Virus record (IMG/VR): IMGVR_UViG_3300005534_000007
Direction: 5' to 3' (one strand)
Source of the DNA: a virus
DNA length: 40,686 bases
Positions 5,515-10,685 of the stretch are shown in pieces; position 1 is the stretch's first letter, and the number at the start of each line of letters is the position of its first letter. The notes under the pieces are model-generated. The model did no database searches. It saw only the letters and a program-made list of their open reading frames with translations, and was not told the origin of the DNA. The position numbers were made by a program, and so were the translations under genes.

Positions 5515-7506
5515 TCACATTTGACCAGAAGCTTGTGGTGTATTTTGCTGCTCAGGTCCTTTCATCCCACCCATAATTTCAGCCAGAAACTTATTAGCAC
5601 CTGTGCGTCTCTCTACATCCTGTTTCTCAGCCTCTTCTCGCCCTTGAATCTGCTGGCTTTCCATATCCATTTTCATCTGTTGATACTGAGTCTCTATTTC
5701 ACCAAATCTTGCCATGTTTTCTAGCATAGAAGTAAGAGCTGCTTGTTTCTCTTTAAGAGACATGGCCCTATTACGCTCTATCATGCTCAGTCTTTCCTCG
5801 TACAAACCTAGGTTGCTTTCGCTACGACTATGATCTTCTCGTGCCCTTGCAATATTAGCCGCAGCCTTAGACATAAGTTCTTTAAGTTTAACTTCTTCAA
5901 ATGAATGCTTAATATTCATTTCTTCTTGTTGAGCTGCTTGCATTTGTTGTTCTTGTTGCTGTAAGAACTCGATGATTTCGGCTTTTCCTGTGATATTTAG
6001 CTTAGGAATAATCCTAGAAGGAGGGAATACCTCGCGCCCAAACATCTGATTGATTTCAAGCATGTTCTGTGCCTGCAAATTCTGCTGCGTTGGGGTAAGA
6101 TCAGCTTCTTCTACAAGCACCTGGCACTTGGCAAAGATTTTCGAATAGAAATGCGGTGTTGGCTCTTCTCCGATTAGTAGTTCTACCTTAGCCGCATTCC
6201 AATTGTTAATGGCGATCTGAAGTAGTCTTTCCCCAAGCAACTTATCCGATAGATCCCATTGATCGAAATACTTTTGAAGTACCATCAAATTGGCCGCTTG
6301 TTTCAGCATGGTGGTAAGAGAAGACGCCTGCTTATCATTTTGTGCAGACCAGTTCTCCAAATCAATGCCAGATGTGCCAAAAATCAAGGTGCGTAATCTA
6401 TCCGCCAAAGCAAAGTCTGATTCTGGAACAGAATTAGGCACGATCTTCTCGACATCGGTCATTTCGTAGCCTTCATTCACGATAACATCCCAGCCTTGAC
6501 CAGATTTCTTCATGTTATCTTCATTGGCCACAGAGCCAACTTTTCGCTTCCATCCAGCATTGATTGTAGCTTCTTTCTGATCATGGGAAATAATGATCTG
6601 GCGATTCATCAAGTAGTTTGAGTCGCGCATAGTGCGCACTAGACCTCGGCACCTTAGATCATAGTAGTTATTGTGCGGTTCATAATTCCAATAATAGGGG
6701 ATAAACGGGCAATCATCAAAACCAAGGGGATTATCACCTTGGAACATGAGCTGATCATTGAGGACAACGGCTAATTTCCATGTAGGAACTTCAACCGTTA
6801 CTTCCTCAAGATCGGGAATGGCCTGCATAATCATTTCTAGGTTTTCATCACCACCTGCGAAATCGAAGAACTGATTACGCCTTGGTGAGTAGAGACGTTT
6901 CTTTTTGCGCTTCCATTTATACCATACATAAGACAAGACCATAAGGTCATTGCGCGCCATGTTGTAGTTTTCTGGTAAGAAATAAAAGCTTCCATATCTT
7001 TGAGGAGATCCAGCCATTGGAGCGATCTTTTCTAGCTTATCAGGAAATCTAGATTCGGCTTCTTTCTTGGATACATACTCTTGACACCAAACGAATTGCG
7101 CATCGCTCATATCAGGGGAGCGGAAGTAGGGATCTACCAGAAAGCTATTATATTCCCATACCTTCAATTTAAGTTCACCTTGCGCCGGGTCATTACCCAT
7201 GAAATCAAGGTAAGGCTGAGCTAGTACCATGCCAGTTATGCAGGCTTGTTCCTTGGCCCTGGACTTCTGTTCATGGATTGCACCAGCATTAGCAACGCTT
7301 GTGATAAGCTTCGTATATTGATCGGTAGTTTGAGGATCAGCACCCTCTGTTGGAGTATAAATCCACTGCTTTCTATGCTGTCTTTCATAACCAGTAACCA
7401 TATTGACTGGCTGCTGGAGAAGATTGAAATAGAAGTTCTGCGCCGATGAAGATGGAGTAATACCAAAGTATCGGTTTATATACTGCTGAGCGCCTGCATA
7501 GAACAA
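5515..7506 (-). CDS. Portal protein with long C-terminal coiled-coil (barrel-like) extension
   Basis: 663 aa from a TTG start. Size, position near terL, and a Q/E-rich helical tail of about 150 aa support the call. The frame stays open for 53 further codons upstream (see finding). Confidence 0.75.
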   Translation of the reverse strand: MFYAGAQQYINRYFGITPSSSAQNFYFNLLQQPVNMVTGYERQHRKQWIYTPTEGADPQTTDQYTKLITSVANAGAIHEQKSRAKEQACITGMVLAQPYLDFMGNDPAQGELKLKVWEYNSFLVDPYFRSPDMSDAQFVWCQEYVSKKEAESRFPDKLEKIAPMAGSPQRYGSFYFLPENYNMARNDLMVLSYVWYKWKRKKKRLYSPRRNQFFDFAGGDENLEMIMQAIPDLEEVTVEVPTWKLAVVLNDQLMFQGDNPLGFDDCPFIPYYWNYEPHNNYYDLRCRGLVRTMRDSNYLMNRQIIISHDQKEATINAGWKRKVGSVANEDNMKKSGQGWDVIVNEGYEMTDVEKIVPNSVPESDFALADRLRTLIFGTSGIDLENWSAQNDKQASSLTTMLKQAANLMVLQKYFDQWDLSDKLLGERLLQIAINNWNAAKVELLIGEEPTPHFYSKIFAKCQVLVEEADLTPTQQNLQAQNMLEINQMFGREVFPPSRIIPKLNITGKAEIIEFLQQQEQQMQAAQQEEMNIKHSFEEVKLKELMSKAAANIARAREDHSRSESNLGLYEERLSMIERNRAMSLKEKQAALTSMLENMARFGEIETQYQQMKMDMESQQIQGREEAEKQDVERRTGANKFLAEIMGGMKGPEQQNTPQASGQM

Positions 7507-7691
7507 TGTATCAATATTGGATTGGTTCCACCTGCTTTGCTCCAGGGGCTGAAATTTGCTGTATAGATTATCAAGCCACTGGCGAACGTTACCTTGGTTA
7601 GGTTCAAGTGCATTATTCCAAGGGGGATAGTAGAAAGAAATAGTAGCCTCCGCGACCCGATTTGCTTAAAGGCTTACTATAAAGTAAAAAT

Positions 7692-8117
7692 TTATTTTAA
7701 CAAACGAGAATATCTATGAGCCATAACTAAACTTCCAGCCACTGCAACGTTCATACTATAGGGCTTACAAGAAGGAATATGGATTTTTGTCCAGTTATTT
7801 TCGAGAATGACTTTCGGAACTCCGTGATCTTCAGCTCCTAGTATATAGATAGTATTACGAGGATGTTCAAAATCCCATAATGAAGTAGATCCTTCACATT
7901 TTTCCACAATAATGGGTACAAATGCATGTGGTATTTCTAAATTATCCCATTCGAATAGAGGGATGTGCTTAGCCGCATTAGGCGTATCAGCTTTCAATCT
8001 TTTATAACGAGAATTTAGCATAAAAAGAAAATCAGCATCATACAGATAAGCAGAACGCCATAGCATCCCAACATTTTCCATAGTTTTACATGATGTAATA
8101 CCAATCCCAAAAGGCAT
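7692..8117 (-). CDS. SPOUT (SpoU/TrmH/TrmL-like) RNA 2'-O-methyltransferase, minimal 141-aa form
   Basis: Three SpoU motifs are visible: ENVGMLWRSA, IYILGAEDHGVP and IHIPSCKPYSMNVAVAGSLVMAH. They align by eye with E. coli TrmL motifs. Confidence 0.75.
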   Translation of the reverse strand: MPFGIGITSCKTMENVGMLWRSAYLYDADFLFMLNSRYKRLKADTPNAAKHIPLFEWDNLEIPHAFVPIIVEKCEGSTSLWDFEHPRNTIYILGAEDHGVPKVILENNWTKIHIPSCKPYSMNVAVAGSLVMAHRYSRLLK

Positions 8118-8131
8118 TCAGGCATATTAAT

Positions 8132-8398
8132 TTATCCGCGCATTATTCTGAATCTTTTTAGGCCAGGAGCATACGGTTCTTTGGAAACTCCCCAAAGTCC
8201 CCATCTGCTCTTTTTCCTATTTTCTGCTGCCAGTTTGTCTTTTTTCTTCTTATAGTCCGAGTTAATCCATTTCTCGTTGGAAAGCTTGATTTTATGTTGT
8301 TCAGCGCAAGCCCCAGAGCAATATCTCCTCGGGTGCTTCTGGTCCTCTTGAATTATAAATCGCCCATTACATCCAGGGCATAGTCTTTCTATCCCCAT
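8132..8398 (-). CDS. Zinc-ribbon protein with basic tail
   Basis: 88 aa with CPGC...YCSGAC. The segment SNEKWINSDYKKKK is paralogous to SNENWLKRDYKK in ORF 8404..8712. Confidence 0.55.
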   Translation of the reverse strand: MGIERLCPGCNGRFIIQEDQKHPRRYCSGACAEQHKIKLSNEKWINSDYKKKKDKLAAENRKKSRWGLWGVSKEPYAPGLKRFRIMRG

Positions 8399-8403
8399 GA
8401 TAT

Positions 8404-8712
8404 TTAATAAACCCTCCTAGTCGGATCGTACCTATTCGCATTGCCAAATGTCGATACTGTATGAATTTTCTGGGTATTCGATCCTAAGGTGCGTCCAAAA
8501 TTATCGTCGTCATAATTTTTAGCAACTCTATGAGTAGCAAGGGCATAGCGCAGAGCATCAACACTGTGATCATTTTCTTTGAGAGCCTGAGTCGATCTTT
8601 TGGCCGCAACTTTCTTATAATCGCGCTTTAACCAGTTCTCATTGCTTTTTTTGATATTATCCGCAGATTTTTTTGGGTCAGTAGGACCACCACATACTTT
8701 TTTAACCATCAT
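8404..8712 (-). CDS. Chimeric ORF: novel N-terminus fused to a diverged duplicate of the TerL C-terminus (possible gene remnant)
   Basis: C-terminal KENDHSVDALRYALATHRVAKNYDDDNFGRTLGS...YDPTRRVY parallels the TerL end KENDHSVDALRYAIATHRVPKYYVDDDDFGRTLGS...YEPTRRDY. Confidence 0.6.
   Translation of the reverse strand: MMVKKVCGGPTDPKKSADNIKKSNENWLKRDYKKVAAKRSTQALKENDHSVDALRYALATHRVAKNYDDDNFGRTLGSNTQKIHTVSTFGNANRYDPTRRVY
8528..8590. repeat. Conserved 63-nt core of the terL 3'-end duplication (copy 1)
   Basis: Matches 9003..9065 with 4 mismatches by hand alignment. Flanking homology is much more diverged. Confidence 0.85.
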
Positions 8713-8879
8713 TTATCTTTTGTTTTAAAGAACCTGGTAAGCAAGACAATTAGAGCACCCATTAAAAAAATGATCACATCCCCGCATAAAATAACGCATA
8801 GAAAAGTCCAGGAAATTTCTATAATATCCAGTAGTTTTAACGTCATCAAAATGAGAAAAAGAAAGCTGAAGAATCCCAT
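8709..8879 (-). CDS. Small two-TM membrane protein (56 aa, holin-like topology)
   Basis: Hand translation: MGFFSFLFLILMTLKLLDIIEISWTFLCVILCGDVIIFLMGALIVLLTRFFKTKDK. TAATG overlap with the terL stop and ATGA overlap with the next ORF. Confidence 0.45.
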   Translation of the reverse strand: MGFFSFLFLILMTLKLLDIIEISWTFLCVILCGDVIIFLMGALIVLLTRFFKTKDK

Positions 8880-10204
8880 TAATAGTCCCTCCTAGTGGGT
8901 TCATATTTATTTACGTTAGAAAAGCTAGCAGAGTCATGCGAGATTTTCTTACTTCCTAGCGTACGCCCAAAATCATCATCATCGACGTAATACTTAGGAA
9001 CCCTATGAGTAGCAATAGCATAGCGCAGAGCGTCAACACTGTGATCATTTTCTTTGAGAGGCTGATCGTATCCTTTTTTGGCAGCTTTCGGGTCCCAGAC
9101 ATAGCTTTGCACCTCGCGTATCAAGTTCTTGCATTCTGAGCAGATGAAAAGATTGCCCTTCTTCATCTCGGATGTCATGATTTGTATGCCGTTTTCCACA
9201 TCGTTATTAGCATGGACGGCGTGCAGGCCGCGCCTTTGTAGCTCTAGTTGGAACGCTGCCGCACTTGGGTCAATGTAGATATTTCTGACGGCGTAGGGTT
9301 CTAAGAATGCCTGCACATCATTTGCAAACTCGCTATTGGTCTTCTGTCGCCCCTCTTTCTTTGGATCTGGGTCCCAGTAGTATTCCTTCTCTACCCACAT
9401 ACAGCGCCCTGTTTGCGTATATTTCCCGCTTGTTACTCCTATCAGAAGACAGCAGAACGGATTAACAGTGCCGTAATCGATAGAAGCAATCCAATATTCA
9501 GCAGTAGCAGGAGGCCTATCCACCACATATAGCTTGCGATCAAAAAAGTCGAAAATGGCGCCTTCTGCCAAGCACCAAAGACCAAGATAATTTCTTTGAT
9601 AAAATAAGCCAGAAACAGAATCGCGAATACGCTGCTTATAAGACTCATCAACATAGGGGTTATCATCCAATGTAAAGTGCAGGGCGTAATAGTTCGGATC
9701 GCCAGCTTCCGCCTTATCAATCCACTGCTTGATTTTATGATCGGGGTGGCTCGGGTTCATGGACGCAAAGCCCATGGAATGCGGCGTCGATAGACGCGTA
9801 TCGATCATGTCGATAATCGACTCGGGGTAAAGCGTCATCTCGTCGCAGTAGCATAGGCTCATGGTGAGTCCCTGGAAGCTGCCGATAGCCCCCTCATCCT
9901 TGGCGCCGAGTATATTGATTACTTTGTCCTTGAAGTGCAGTTTTTTGCCAGACCAAGTGCAAAAAGGCCGATAGATCGAAAGCTCTGGCGACTCCATGAT
10001 AAGACGCACGACATTTCGATAAGCCGTGTCGAAAGTATGGCCCACGATGTATATCTTACTATCTGGACATTGCTCAGAGGCGTTTAAGAAGCGAAAGGCA
10101 TTCGCAACTGTTTTTCCAGTCCTCACAGATCCGTGGGCCAGATTCCAACGGGCTGTGCTGTTAAGGACAAATTCTAATTGCTTGGGTGAAAGGGGCTGTT
10201 CCAT
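8879..10204 (-). CDS. terL: Terminase large subunit
   Basis: 441 aa. Walker A is GSVRTGKT and Walker B is LCYCDE. Nuclease-domain acidic motifs are ASIDYG and ENDHSVDALRYA. Confidence 0.9.
   Translation of the reverse strand: MEQPLSPKQLEFVLNSTARWNLAHGSVRTGKTVANAFRFLNASEQCPDSKIYIVGHTFDTAYRNVVRLIMESPELSIYRPFCTWSGKKLHFKDKVINILGAKDEGAIGSFQGLTMSLCYCDEMTLYPESIIDMIDTRLSTPHSMGFASMNPSHPDHKIKQWIDKAEAGDPNYYALHFTLDDNPYVDESYKQRIRDSVSGLFYQRNYLGLWCLAEGAIFDFFDRKLYVVDRPPATAEYWIASIDYGTVNPFCCLLIGVTSGKYTQTGRCMWVEKEYYWDPDPKKEGRQKTNSEFANDVQAFLEPYAVRNIYIDPSAAAFQLELQRRGLHAVHANNDVENGIQIMTSEMKKGNLFICSECKNLIREVQSYVWDPKAAKKGYDQPLKENDHSVDALRYAIATHRVPKYYVDDDDFGRTLGSKKISHDSASFSNVNKYEPTRRDY
9003..9065. repeat. Conserved 63-nt core of the terL 3'-end duplication (copy 2, inside the functional terL)
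   Basis: Matches 8528..8590 with 4 mismatches. Confidence 0.85.
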
Positions 10205-10245
10205 AACCGCACTTTGTAACTTTTATTTTTTAATTGCAAAAAAAT

Positions 10246-10275
10246 TTTACAAAAATGGGTGCCCGCTCATATAAG
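10246..10275 (+). promoter_or_regulatory. Candidate sigma70-type promoter for accessory block A
   Basis: TTTACA, 18 nt, then TATAAG, in the 91-bp divergent region between terL and the first plus-strand gene. Confidence 0.3.
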
Positions 10276-10301
10276 CAAAAATTATATTACTATAGGTGGA
10301 T

Positions 10302-10685
10302 ATGATAGCGCGGCGAACCTTCTACATTTTCCTCAGCGTGATATGTTTAGCACTTCTCATAGCCTGTAGCAGGACCTACCTCCCGGACGTAACGCCCGCT
10401 TGCAGCTGTCGCACAGGCATAGCCCTACGTCACTATGCAATCAGAGATGGCGAGCTCAAGAAAATATATTCGCCCTACACAATTTTGTGCGCCAAATGTA
10501 AAGGAAATAATATGCATGTAGAGAAAGAGAAGAAAATCCACCTCATCATTGAGCTAAATCATTACGACATCGCTAGTCTGCAAGCCGGGCGCCCGATATA
10601 CCAAGACTTGCCGGAAGCAGATGGTATTTCCATGGGCATAGAAGTCTCCTACACGGGCGACGATTATTTTGGAGAGGATGAATGA
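10302..10685 (+). CDS. Putative lipoprotein, unknown function
   Basis: N-terminus MIARRTFYIFLSVICLALLIAC has a basic n-region, a hydrophobic core and the lipobox L-I-A-C. The track start is a GTG at 10296. Confidence 0.5.
   Translation: MIARRTFYIFLSVICLALLIACSRTYLPDVTPACSCRTGIALRHYAIRDGELKKIYSPYTILCAKCKGNNMHVEKEKKIHLIIELNHYDIASLQAGRPIYQDLPEADGISMGIEVSYTGDDYFGEDE

Follow-up and report, generated by a model that had tools for sequence, protein, structure and literature searches.

Integrative elements such as the prophages and islands that target tRNA genes carry a replacement 3' end for the gene they enter and leave the displaced partial copy behind as a direct repeat. In fungal mitochondria, mobile endonuclease open reading frames (mORFs) bring a foreign C-terminus for the gene, as in atp6 of Allomyces macrogynus and atp6, atp9, cox2 and nad3 of Glomus sp. 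(PMC3630166). Here the gene core runs in frame into the foreign C-terminus, which is followed by an endonuclease open reading frame (ORF) and then by the native C-terminus; it is the native copy that agrees with the relative lacking the endonuclease, and the inserted one is diverged, with 63% between the copies in Glomus atp6 (PMC3630166). In phages, free-standing homing endonuclease genes (HEGs) cluster beside terminase genes and bound exchanged segments (Barth, Dunham & Seed 2023, PMC10448857), and HEG islands hold small genes that are fragments of neighbouring essential genes and possible recombination substrates (preprint PMC10055350). A further arrangement, the 'fractured gene', consists of a split intein together with a free-standing endonuclease (Dassa et al. 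2009, PMC2677866). The subject of the present analysis is the 3' end of terL, the gene for the large terminase subunit, in a 40,686-nucleotide (nt) stretch of viral DNA, IMG/VR record IMGVR_UViG_3300005534_000007, which as a whole is called the window. The terL end is found there twice, and the locus is probably (at a rough probability of 0.6) the scar of a decayed homing-endonuclease-type replacement of the 3' end, in which the old end was left behind.

The elements concerned are listed here, with lengths of products in amino acids (aa).

8879-10204, minus strand: terL, large terminase subunit, 441 aa, the intact and functional copy (Pfam Terminase_6N E 9e-11; PHROG 2 E 2.5e-50)
8879-9095, minus strand: repeat copy 1, the in-gene terL 3' end, made up of pre-core, core, tail 1 and stop
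8709-8879, minus strand: tm56, 56 aa, strongly hydrophobic with two hydrophobic segments, between the repeat copies (hydropathy; PHROG 1374 E 4e-7)
8404-8712, minus strand: orf102, a chimeric ORF of 102 aa; residues 1 to ~33 are not TerL (Zn-ribbon-tail-like) and ~34-102 are the presumed old terL end
8404-8620, minus strand: repeat copy 2, the presumed displaced terL 3' end, forming the C-terminal two thirds of orf102 (tblastn E 6e-23; TerL-tail profile E 1e-11)
8132-8398, minus strand: zn88, 88 aa, with a CxxC...CxxxC Zn ribbon at residues 3-37 (8288-8392)

Of the features of a 3'-end replacement, the window has a complete, in-frame gene end on terL and a partial copy displaced 475 nt downstream. 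An earlier note on this DNA, made from the letters alone, had claimed that the terL 3' end recurs at 8404 with a period of 475 bp, that a 102-aa ORF has the downstream copy as its C-terminus and that a 56-aa ORF lies between the copies, and all of this is borne out. The last ~62-70 codons of terL recur as the C-terminus of orf102, and a repeat search returns two pairs at a spacing of 475, namely 8500-8614 with 8975-9089 (115 nt, 81%) and 8404-8436 with 8879-8911 (33 nt, 79%), which are separated by two compensating 3-nt indels. Residues 34-102 of orf102 are 65-70% identical to TerL residues 372-441 (tblastn E 1e-19 to 6e-23). A profile built from 117 TerL C-termini and scanned against the six frames of the whole window matches orf102 at E 1e-11 and nothing else besides terL itself, and the resemblance is far beyond chance. 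The homology probably reaches ~8 codons further upstream than first stated, to ~9088 and ~8613, at 63% nt identity. Only ~216 of the 475 nt are repeated, and tm56 has no counterpart in the second unit.

Divergence between the copies was taken from their codon alignment, with the proportions of synonymous (pS) and nonsynonymous (pN) differences given for each segment.

8999-9064, minus strand: core 1, 66 nt, encoding QPLKENDHSVDALRYAIATHRV, the last conserved motif of the nuclease domain (61/66 nt shared with core 2)
8524-8589, minus strand: core 2, 66 nt, encoding QALKENDHSVDALRYALATHRV (pS 0.20 against core 1)
Core of 22 codons, Q.LKENDHSVDALRYA.ATHRV: nt identity 92%, pS 0.20, pN 0.04
Tails, 38 aligned codons, the lineage-specific C-terminus: nt identity 60%, pS 0.85, pN 0.29
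DDDxFGRTLGS stretch inside the tails: nt identity 69%, pS 0.91, pN 0.15

The core, with which the conserved TerL fold ends (residues 22-399 of TerL can be aligned to PDB 5OE8/5OEA), is nearly identical between the copies, with 4 mismatches over 60 nt or 5 over 66 nt (8999-9064 against 8524-8589); the earlier note had seen both this and the greater divergence of the distal codons. Where the two copies encode the same amino acid, the codons differ at 3 of 20 positions in the core and at 12 of 22 in the tails (Fisher p 0.011). The similarity of the core is not explained by amino-acid constraint, because constraint alone gives ~74% nt identity: the cores of relatives have 47-79%, and the locus L069, with the identical peptide PLKENDHSVDALRYAI, shares only 49 of the 66 nt. 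The core coalesces much more recently than the tails. The tails are saturated at synonymous sites and yet the protein is kept, so both have evolved over a long period as coding sequence under protein selection, which is what is expected of orthologous terL ends from two lineages. In the pre-core, orf102 reads KVAAKRSTQA against KAAKKGYDQP in TerL (~63% nt) and is without the family-conserved G, D and P of KAAxKGxDxP; since these TerL-conserved residues are lost, the orf102 copy no longer evolves as terL.

A 15-nt segment within tm56 (8764-8778) is the inverted complement, at 14/15 positions, of the AAGAAAATGATCACA part of both cores (8565-8579 and 9040-9054). It was rejected as a signal: the palindrome TGATCA is part of it, and other pairs at chance level in the same scan are just as good.

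The comparison set consists of 120 TerL sequences and of ~150 related loci, given L numbers here, which were gathered from IMG/VR, JGI metagenomes, GTDB genomes and Logan/ENA. When the TerL tail of each locus was compared with the DNA downstream of it, remnants of the terL end were found beyond an inserted segment in at least four other lineages of the clade.

L047 and L030: terL, then an HNH_3 endonuclease (PF13392, E 6e-16 and 3e-14), then, immediately behind the HNH stop, a remnant beginning at the DA/LRY codons
L138: terL, then a different HNH_3 gene (E 5e-11), then the remnant QKQQDFMKQKLHPGGYGYR and a stop
L101: terL, then a Zn-ribbon ORF of 65 aa, then the remnant EYRLNRYDTSRRF and a stop
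L107: the terL end and downstream genes occur twice, as a diverged tandem unit of ~1 kb; the remnant has an in-frame stop

An intact HNH_3 endonuclease lies between the copies in three loci (L030, L047 and L138) from two lineages. In L047 and L030 the downstream copy is the native one, as judged against the HNH-free locus L007: the remnants are 84 and 82% identical to the in-gene end of L007 but only 66 and 61% to the in-gene ends of their own loci. The HNH-linked in-gene ends of L047 and L030 are 95% identical to each other, and terL identity between the two loci, 0.77-0.89 in the body of the gene, goes up to 0.90-0.96 in the last ~250 nt near the endonuclease. This is the classic pattern of co-conversion, with the endonuclease moving together with a flanking piece of the gene whilst the native end stays downstream. 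HNH genes of the L047 family also stand directly after terL in L052/53, L054, L057 and L058, where a remnant was not detectable. In L107, where no endonuclease is recognisable, the remnant is followed (L107:4207-5970) by paralogues, of 101 and 116 aa, of the minus-strand genes of 89 and 138 aa that lie between the copies.

The TerL motif at which these insertions occur (DHx/C DALRY) is a target of selfish elements, because inteins occupy the same motif in two further loci. L004 (L004:5001-6737) encodes a 578-aa TerL with a contiguous mini-intein of ~150 aa (PF14890, E 3e-12) within the nuclease-domain motif DHI/C..N/CDATRY. A survey of mycobacteriophages places all TerL inteins in the ATPase domain (PMC5050341), and the nuclease-motif site of L004 may be an unlisted insertion site. 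In L038 (L038:5001-7242) terL is a 'fractured gene', in which the N-terminal part of TerL is joined to the N-part of an intein (CVVGET.., Intein_splicing positions 17-80) and ends with a stop at 6452, followed by a free-standing HNH_3 ORF (6456-7046) that is 52% identical to the HNH of L047, and by a 93-aa ORF (6961-7242) composed of the C-part of the intein (..GMVIKN/CDALRY, positions 118-155) and the C-terminal end of TerL. L019 (L019:2936-4130), whose TerL is 77% identical to that of the window, has a 296-aa collagen-like protein with GPQG repeats and a 120-aa ORF between terL and portal. The 120-aa ORF consists only of two Zn ribbons of the HNH endonuclease family, without the nuclease, and on its sequence looks like a decayed endonuclease.

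Traces of the same family are found in the window. Residues 3-37 of zn88 align with the final Zn ribbon in the HNH proteins and with the (D/G)IE(K/R)xC in front of it, with a pairwise E of 2e-4 against the L047 HNH. Positions 163-198 of the HNH profile match zn88 at E 4e-4 locally and at 0.0057 over the whole window, where this is the only match below 0.01, and zn88 also matches PHROG 1271, 'HNH endonuclease' (E 0.013), and the nuclease-less Zn-ribbon ORF of L019 (E 6e-4). The N-terminus of orf102 is itself paralogous to a part of zn88, again in agreement with the earlier note.

8611-8655, minus strand: IKKSNENWLKRDYKK segment of orf102, paralogous to zn88 residues 37-51 at 8246-8290 (BLASTP 10/15, E 3e-5)

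The N-terminus of orf102 (..VCGGP..IKKSNENWLKRDYKK) corresponds to the post-ribbon part of zn88 (..YCSGAC..IKLSNEKWINSDYKK), and the shared module, IKxSNExWxxxDYKK, is identical at 29/45 nt. Because of this paralogy, the simplest source for the piece that precedes the old terL end in orf102 is the 3' end of another gene of the zn88 kind, and the fusion mirrors L047, in which the 3' end of the HNH gene abuts the remnant. As only the last motif of the nuclease domain is present in orf102, it cannot be a nuclease. The proteins of the terL-portal island gave no nuclease domain against Pfam, PHROG, NCBIfam and PADLOC, and no homing-endonuclease ORF lies between the two gene ends of the window, a feature that is present in L030, L047 and L138. 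Since the endonuclease itself is absent, the window is filed as a decayed remnant rather than as an active element.

Other identities for the island were tried and set aside. An intron in terL is not indicated, with no Rfam match at E≤1 in 7400-10400 and with terL reading through to a normal family-type end; an intein was likewise rejected, as TerL, orf102 and tm56 have no Pfam intein (Hint) domain and terL is uninterrupted. A third, older remnant of the terL end in the zn88 C-terminus or in the SNExWxxxDY segment, which resembles the ..EWLRDRY.. motif found in tails of the family, scored -1.3 and 0.8 bits against the profile and is not significant. A defence-system reading of the island is unsupported (PADLOC).

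The duplication of the window has so far been seen in this lineage only. The TerL family is very large, with 3,208 matches at E≤1e-50 of which the best has 81% identity, and the earlier suggestion to look for related terL loci without the 475-bp unit was answered by all ~150 loci and 120 TerL sequences, in which neither the duplication nor the tail type occurs. The nearest relatives (TerL 81% and 77%) have terL-portal spacers that are short and different, and terL identity between them and the window falls at the tail with no clear breakpoint upstream. There is accordingly a presence/absence polymorphism at the locus, and analogous inserts are sporadic in the clade. Searches of an index of 5.8e9 proteins with orf102 and zn88 gave no homologue except the proteins themselves, and a full HMMER scan with orf102 of 1.84e9 representatives gave only P0123 and P0124, which are C-terminal parts of genuine TerLs on the short contigs L066 and L067; the possibility, raised earlier as a way to refute the note, that orf102 belongs to an independent conserved family fails on these results. 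Both fragments carry the rare tail type of the window, ..VPKNRGDDENFGRTLG.. (..DDxNFGRTLG..), and since this type is found in two genuine TerL fragments, related donors do exist. No further FGRTLG-type terL ends beyond those of L066 and L067 were found in IMG/VR and GTDB genomes, and the two tails of the window are each other's closest relatives. The terL end of L148 (IMGVR_UViG_3300045391_004411) is 66% identical to that of the window over 38 aa, at a different position. The DNA of the window region has zero matches in 50,697 GenBank phages, as have tm56 and zn88 by tblastn; IMG/VR holds no relative of zn88, and tm56 has no homologue in the fetched related loci or in INPHARED. The duplication is real and lineage-specific.

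In L066 the DDENFGRTLG-tailed TerL (L066:48-1007) is divided between the ORFs 48-611 and 687-1007, and ~30 residues are absent at the point of division; a frameshift, a deletion or a small insertion could account for the split. As in the window, where tm56 stands after terL, the terL of L066 is followed by a small two-TM ORF.

The sequence of events that would produce the window begins with an ancestor in which a break in the recipient terL, at or near the codons of the nuclease motif, was repaired from a related donor, so that terL took up a copy of DNA from a related phage, at the conserved motif (..LKENDHSVDALRY..) or slightly upstream of it. That an endonuclease made the break in this genome, and that the downstream copy is the native one, is suggested by analogy with the relatives. 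The incoming DNA would have comprised the donor's own terL 3' end and its downstream gene or genes, including an HNH/Zn-ribbon homing endonuclease, with synthesis proceeding through the donor end and the downstream cassette. As the spacer is hypervariable, homology would be available on the terL side only, and at the far end an illegitimate join would have been made to recipient DNA, slightly upstream of the recipient's own core. The incoming end would thereby become the working C-terminus of TerL and the resident end would be displaced by 475 nt. The endonuclease gene would then have decayed or been replaced, with its last codons surviving as the N-terminus of orf102 in an in-frame fusion to the old terL end, and with the remaining spacer now being tm56. 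In this scheme zn88 would derive from a paralogous endonuclease, already present downstream of the old end, of which only the C-terminal Zn-ribbon module is left in truncated form. The 66-nt core was presumably homogenised later between the copies by short-patch gene conversion; that this represents repair of the still-cleavable old target from the resistant new copy is speculative. The orf102 product is most likely a co-transcribed and translationally coupled by-product with no necessary function. The earlier proposal of a recombination- or homing-type takeover of the terL 3' end is thus supported by the scars in relatives, with homing and the foreign nature of the copy in the window itself suggested by analogy.

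Such a scar is most likely of a known kind and not a new system. The mORF layout is reproduced exactly by L047, L030 and L138, and the window reproduces all of it but the nuclease. The differences lie in the host, a tailed phage, in the gene, terL, and in the enzyme, which is HNH_3 with Zn ribbons and not LAGLIDADG or GIY-YIG; in the window, moreover, the endonuclease would have been lost, the old end fused into a 102-aa ORF and the core re-homogenised. The terL-portal spacer of the clade behaves like the HEG islands, although the published islands concern T5orf172 and IPA-HNH genes of cultured phages, ICP1 among them, with no description of the present clade, its terL motif or a remnant fused into an ORF, and homing is here predicted from sequence. 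L004 and L038 carry an intein and a fractured gene at the same TerL motif, whereas the window has no Hint domain. Integrative elements resemble the window in the restored 3' end and the displaced copy but differ in their integrase/att logic, since the window repeats are diverged orthologous ends and not an identical att core.

Several points weigh against a homing-type replacement. The whole window contains no nuclease domain, either with a clade-specific HNH profile or in a motif scan, and the Zn-ribbon matches are weak (E 2e-4 to 6e-3) and concern a short cysteine-rich motif. The direction of transfer is unproven for the window lineage because no close 'empty-site' relative was found (best TerL 81%). 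The old copy starts ~10-15 codons upstream of the L047/L030 junction, junctions vary among the other lineages, and a single fixed point of cleavage or insertion is not evident. The parallel order in both units, the terL end followed by the Zn-ribbon-tail module, is equally expected from plain tandem duplication or unequal crossover, and orf102, being open for 102 codons and start/stop-coupled to tm56, could have a selected function.

A nuclease-independent explanation is an unequal (illegitimate) crossover between related phages in a mixed infection or between concatemeric copies from two haplotypes. Both parents would have had terL and a Zn-ribbon gene, and a misaligned join of the 3' part of the downstream gene of one to the terL pre-core of the other would give tandem diverged units. 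The units are indeed collinear and similarly diverged (tails ~60% nt, module 29/45 nt), junction positions vary between lineages, the window has no nuclease domain and the diverged tandem unit of L107 has no recognisable endonuclease. Such a crossover is still considered rather unlikely, as three loci, from two of the four other lineages, have an intact HNH_3 gene exactly between the copies and co-conversion is visible around that gene; moreover, junctions cluster at a motif that also hosts inteins, and Zn-ribbon modules homologous to the DNA-binding end of the endonuclease flank the old copy of the window. An old in-situ tandem duplication, with the downstream copy kept by selection, is distinctly unlikely. 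Duplication of a whole unit in a single event predicts roughly uniform divergence, and the core at 92% and the tails at 60% do not conform to this. On this explanation orf102 would be a functional small protein, carrying the last helix of the nuclease domain and the C-terminal tail of TerL and, for instance, modulating or competing in terminase-portal docking; alternatively, it would be a reserve terL 3' cassette that can be exchanged by recombination between the 66-nt cores. The ORF has stayed open for 102 codons with both indels in frame and its start coupled to the tm56 stop (ATGA), the protein sequence of the tail is conserved despite saturated synonymous sites, and the two tails are mutually closest. 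Recombination between the cores is also predicted to restore an in-frame terL with tail 2, followed by zn88 and its ribosome-binding site (RBS). The conservation of the tail would, however, be expected just as well if the two had evolved apart as genuine terL ends and were joined later, and conservation of orf102 itself cannot be shown because it has no orthologue anywhere searched. The TerL-conserved residues of its pre-core have been lost, and the counterparts of orf102 in relatives are short, untranslatable or broken up by stop codons.

In several phages the C-terminal tail region of TerL docks the terminase to the portal. That orf102 is maintained and translated as a mimic of the TerL C-terminus, so as to adjust packaging or compete in it (for instance with co-infecting relatives) or to serve as a standby 3' cassette with cores kept near-identical, is more doubtful still. 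An assembly artefact, that is, a chimeric join of two strain variants of one phage, would account for the resemblance of the copies to two alleles of one gene end, and the DNA is of metagenomic origin; the earlier note had named mis-assembly among the outcomes that would overturn it. It is nevertheless very unlikely, to the point of being negligible, because 2-3 contigs of ~40.7 kb are recorded with orf102 and this gene order, so that the structure was assembled more than once, and because the copies are too far diverged, and their longest exactly identical run, a few tens of bases, is too short, for an assembly with k=141 to confuse them. The junctions are also clean, with overlapping start and stop codons, and analogous structures occur in independent assemblies of other lineages. 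A decayed homing-type replacement of the terL end is thus retained as the preferred explanation.

The remainder of the island and its right-hand border contain the following.

8888-8893, minus strand: AGGAGG within the codons for PTRR in terL tail 1, with the tm56 ATG 8 nt further on, an RBS carried by the repeat (sequence reading)
8413-8418, minus strand: AGGAGG within the codons for PTRR in tail 2, with the zn88 ATG 14 nt further on (sequence reading)
7692-8117, minus strand: SpoU-type 2'-O-methyltransferase-like gene (spoU), 141 aa, in the lineage-specific terL-portal island (Pfam SpoU_methylase E 1.3e-12)
5515-7506, minus strand: portal, P22-like, 663 aa, the conserved right-hand border of the variable island (Pfam P22_portal E 1e-40)

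The identifications of terL and portal, made from Pfam and PHROG matches, are solid. Both repeat copies close with CCN ACT AGG AGG (PTRR), in which AGGAGG acts as the RBS of tm56 in copy 1 and of zn88 in copy 2. The coupling of all ORFs in the run by TAATG or ATGA overlaps, as claimed earlier, stands for terL/tm56 (TAATG) and tm56/orf102 (ATGA) but not for orf102/zn88 or zn88/spoU, which are separated by gaps of 5 and 14 nt. Promoter and terminator scans from terL to portal gave signals at or under shuffle expectation, and since there is no promoter-like or terminator-like excess between the two genes, the genes of the run are probably transcribed together. Across the clade the terL-portal spacer is hypervariable, from 0.26 to 3.2 kb with unrelated content, and in the window the island has a lower G+C (0.34-0.44) than terL (0.42-0.56). 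The SpoU/TrmH-type RNA 2'-O-methyltransferase-like gene, which is missing from all loci of the relatives, is an odd cargo for a head-morphogenesis operon. The leftward operon begins with terL, the genes upstream running in the opposite direction from 10296 (window 10204-10300), and there is no small-terminase gene directly upstream of terL.

The locus provides a clean, datable example of remodelling at the terL-portal junction in a large clade of uncultured ~40-kb phages. The ~200 nt at the 3' end of terL, a favoured phylogenetic marker, can be foreign and the small ORFs adjacent to it can be gene debris, so that orf102 is best annotated as a terL 3'-end remnant fusion and not as a novel protein family. 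As the conserved PTRR codons of the TerL C-terminus double as a Shine-Dalgarno sequence, any cassette that brings a terL end also brings an RBS. Three kinds of selfish element are found at a single catalytic motif in the nuclease domain of TerL, namely the HNH gene that stands free and is linked to 3'-end replacement, the contiguous mini-intein, and the split intein interrupted by an HNH gene of the same family. The clade thus shows free-standing, intein-embedded and decayed states of one process at a single motif, and represents a natural system for the movement of endonucleases between the free-standing and the intein-embedded state.

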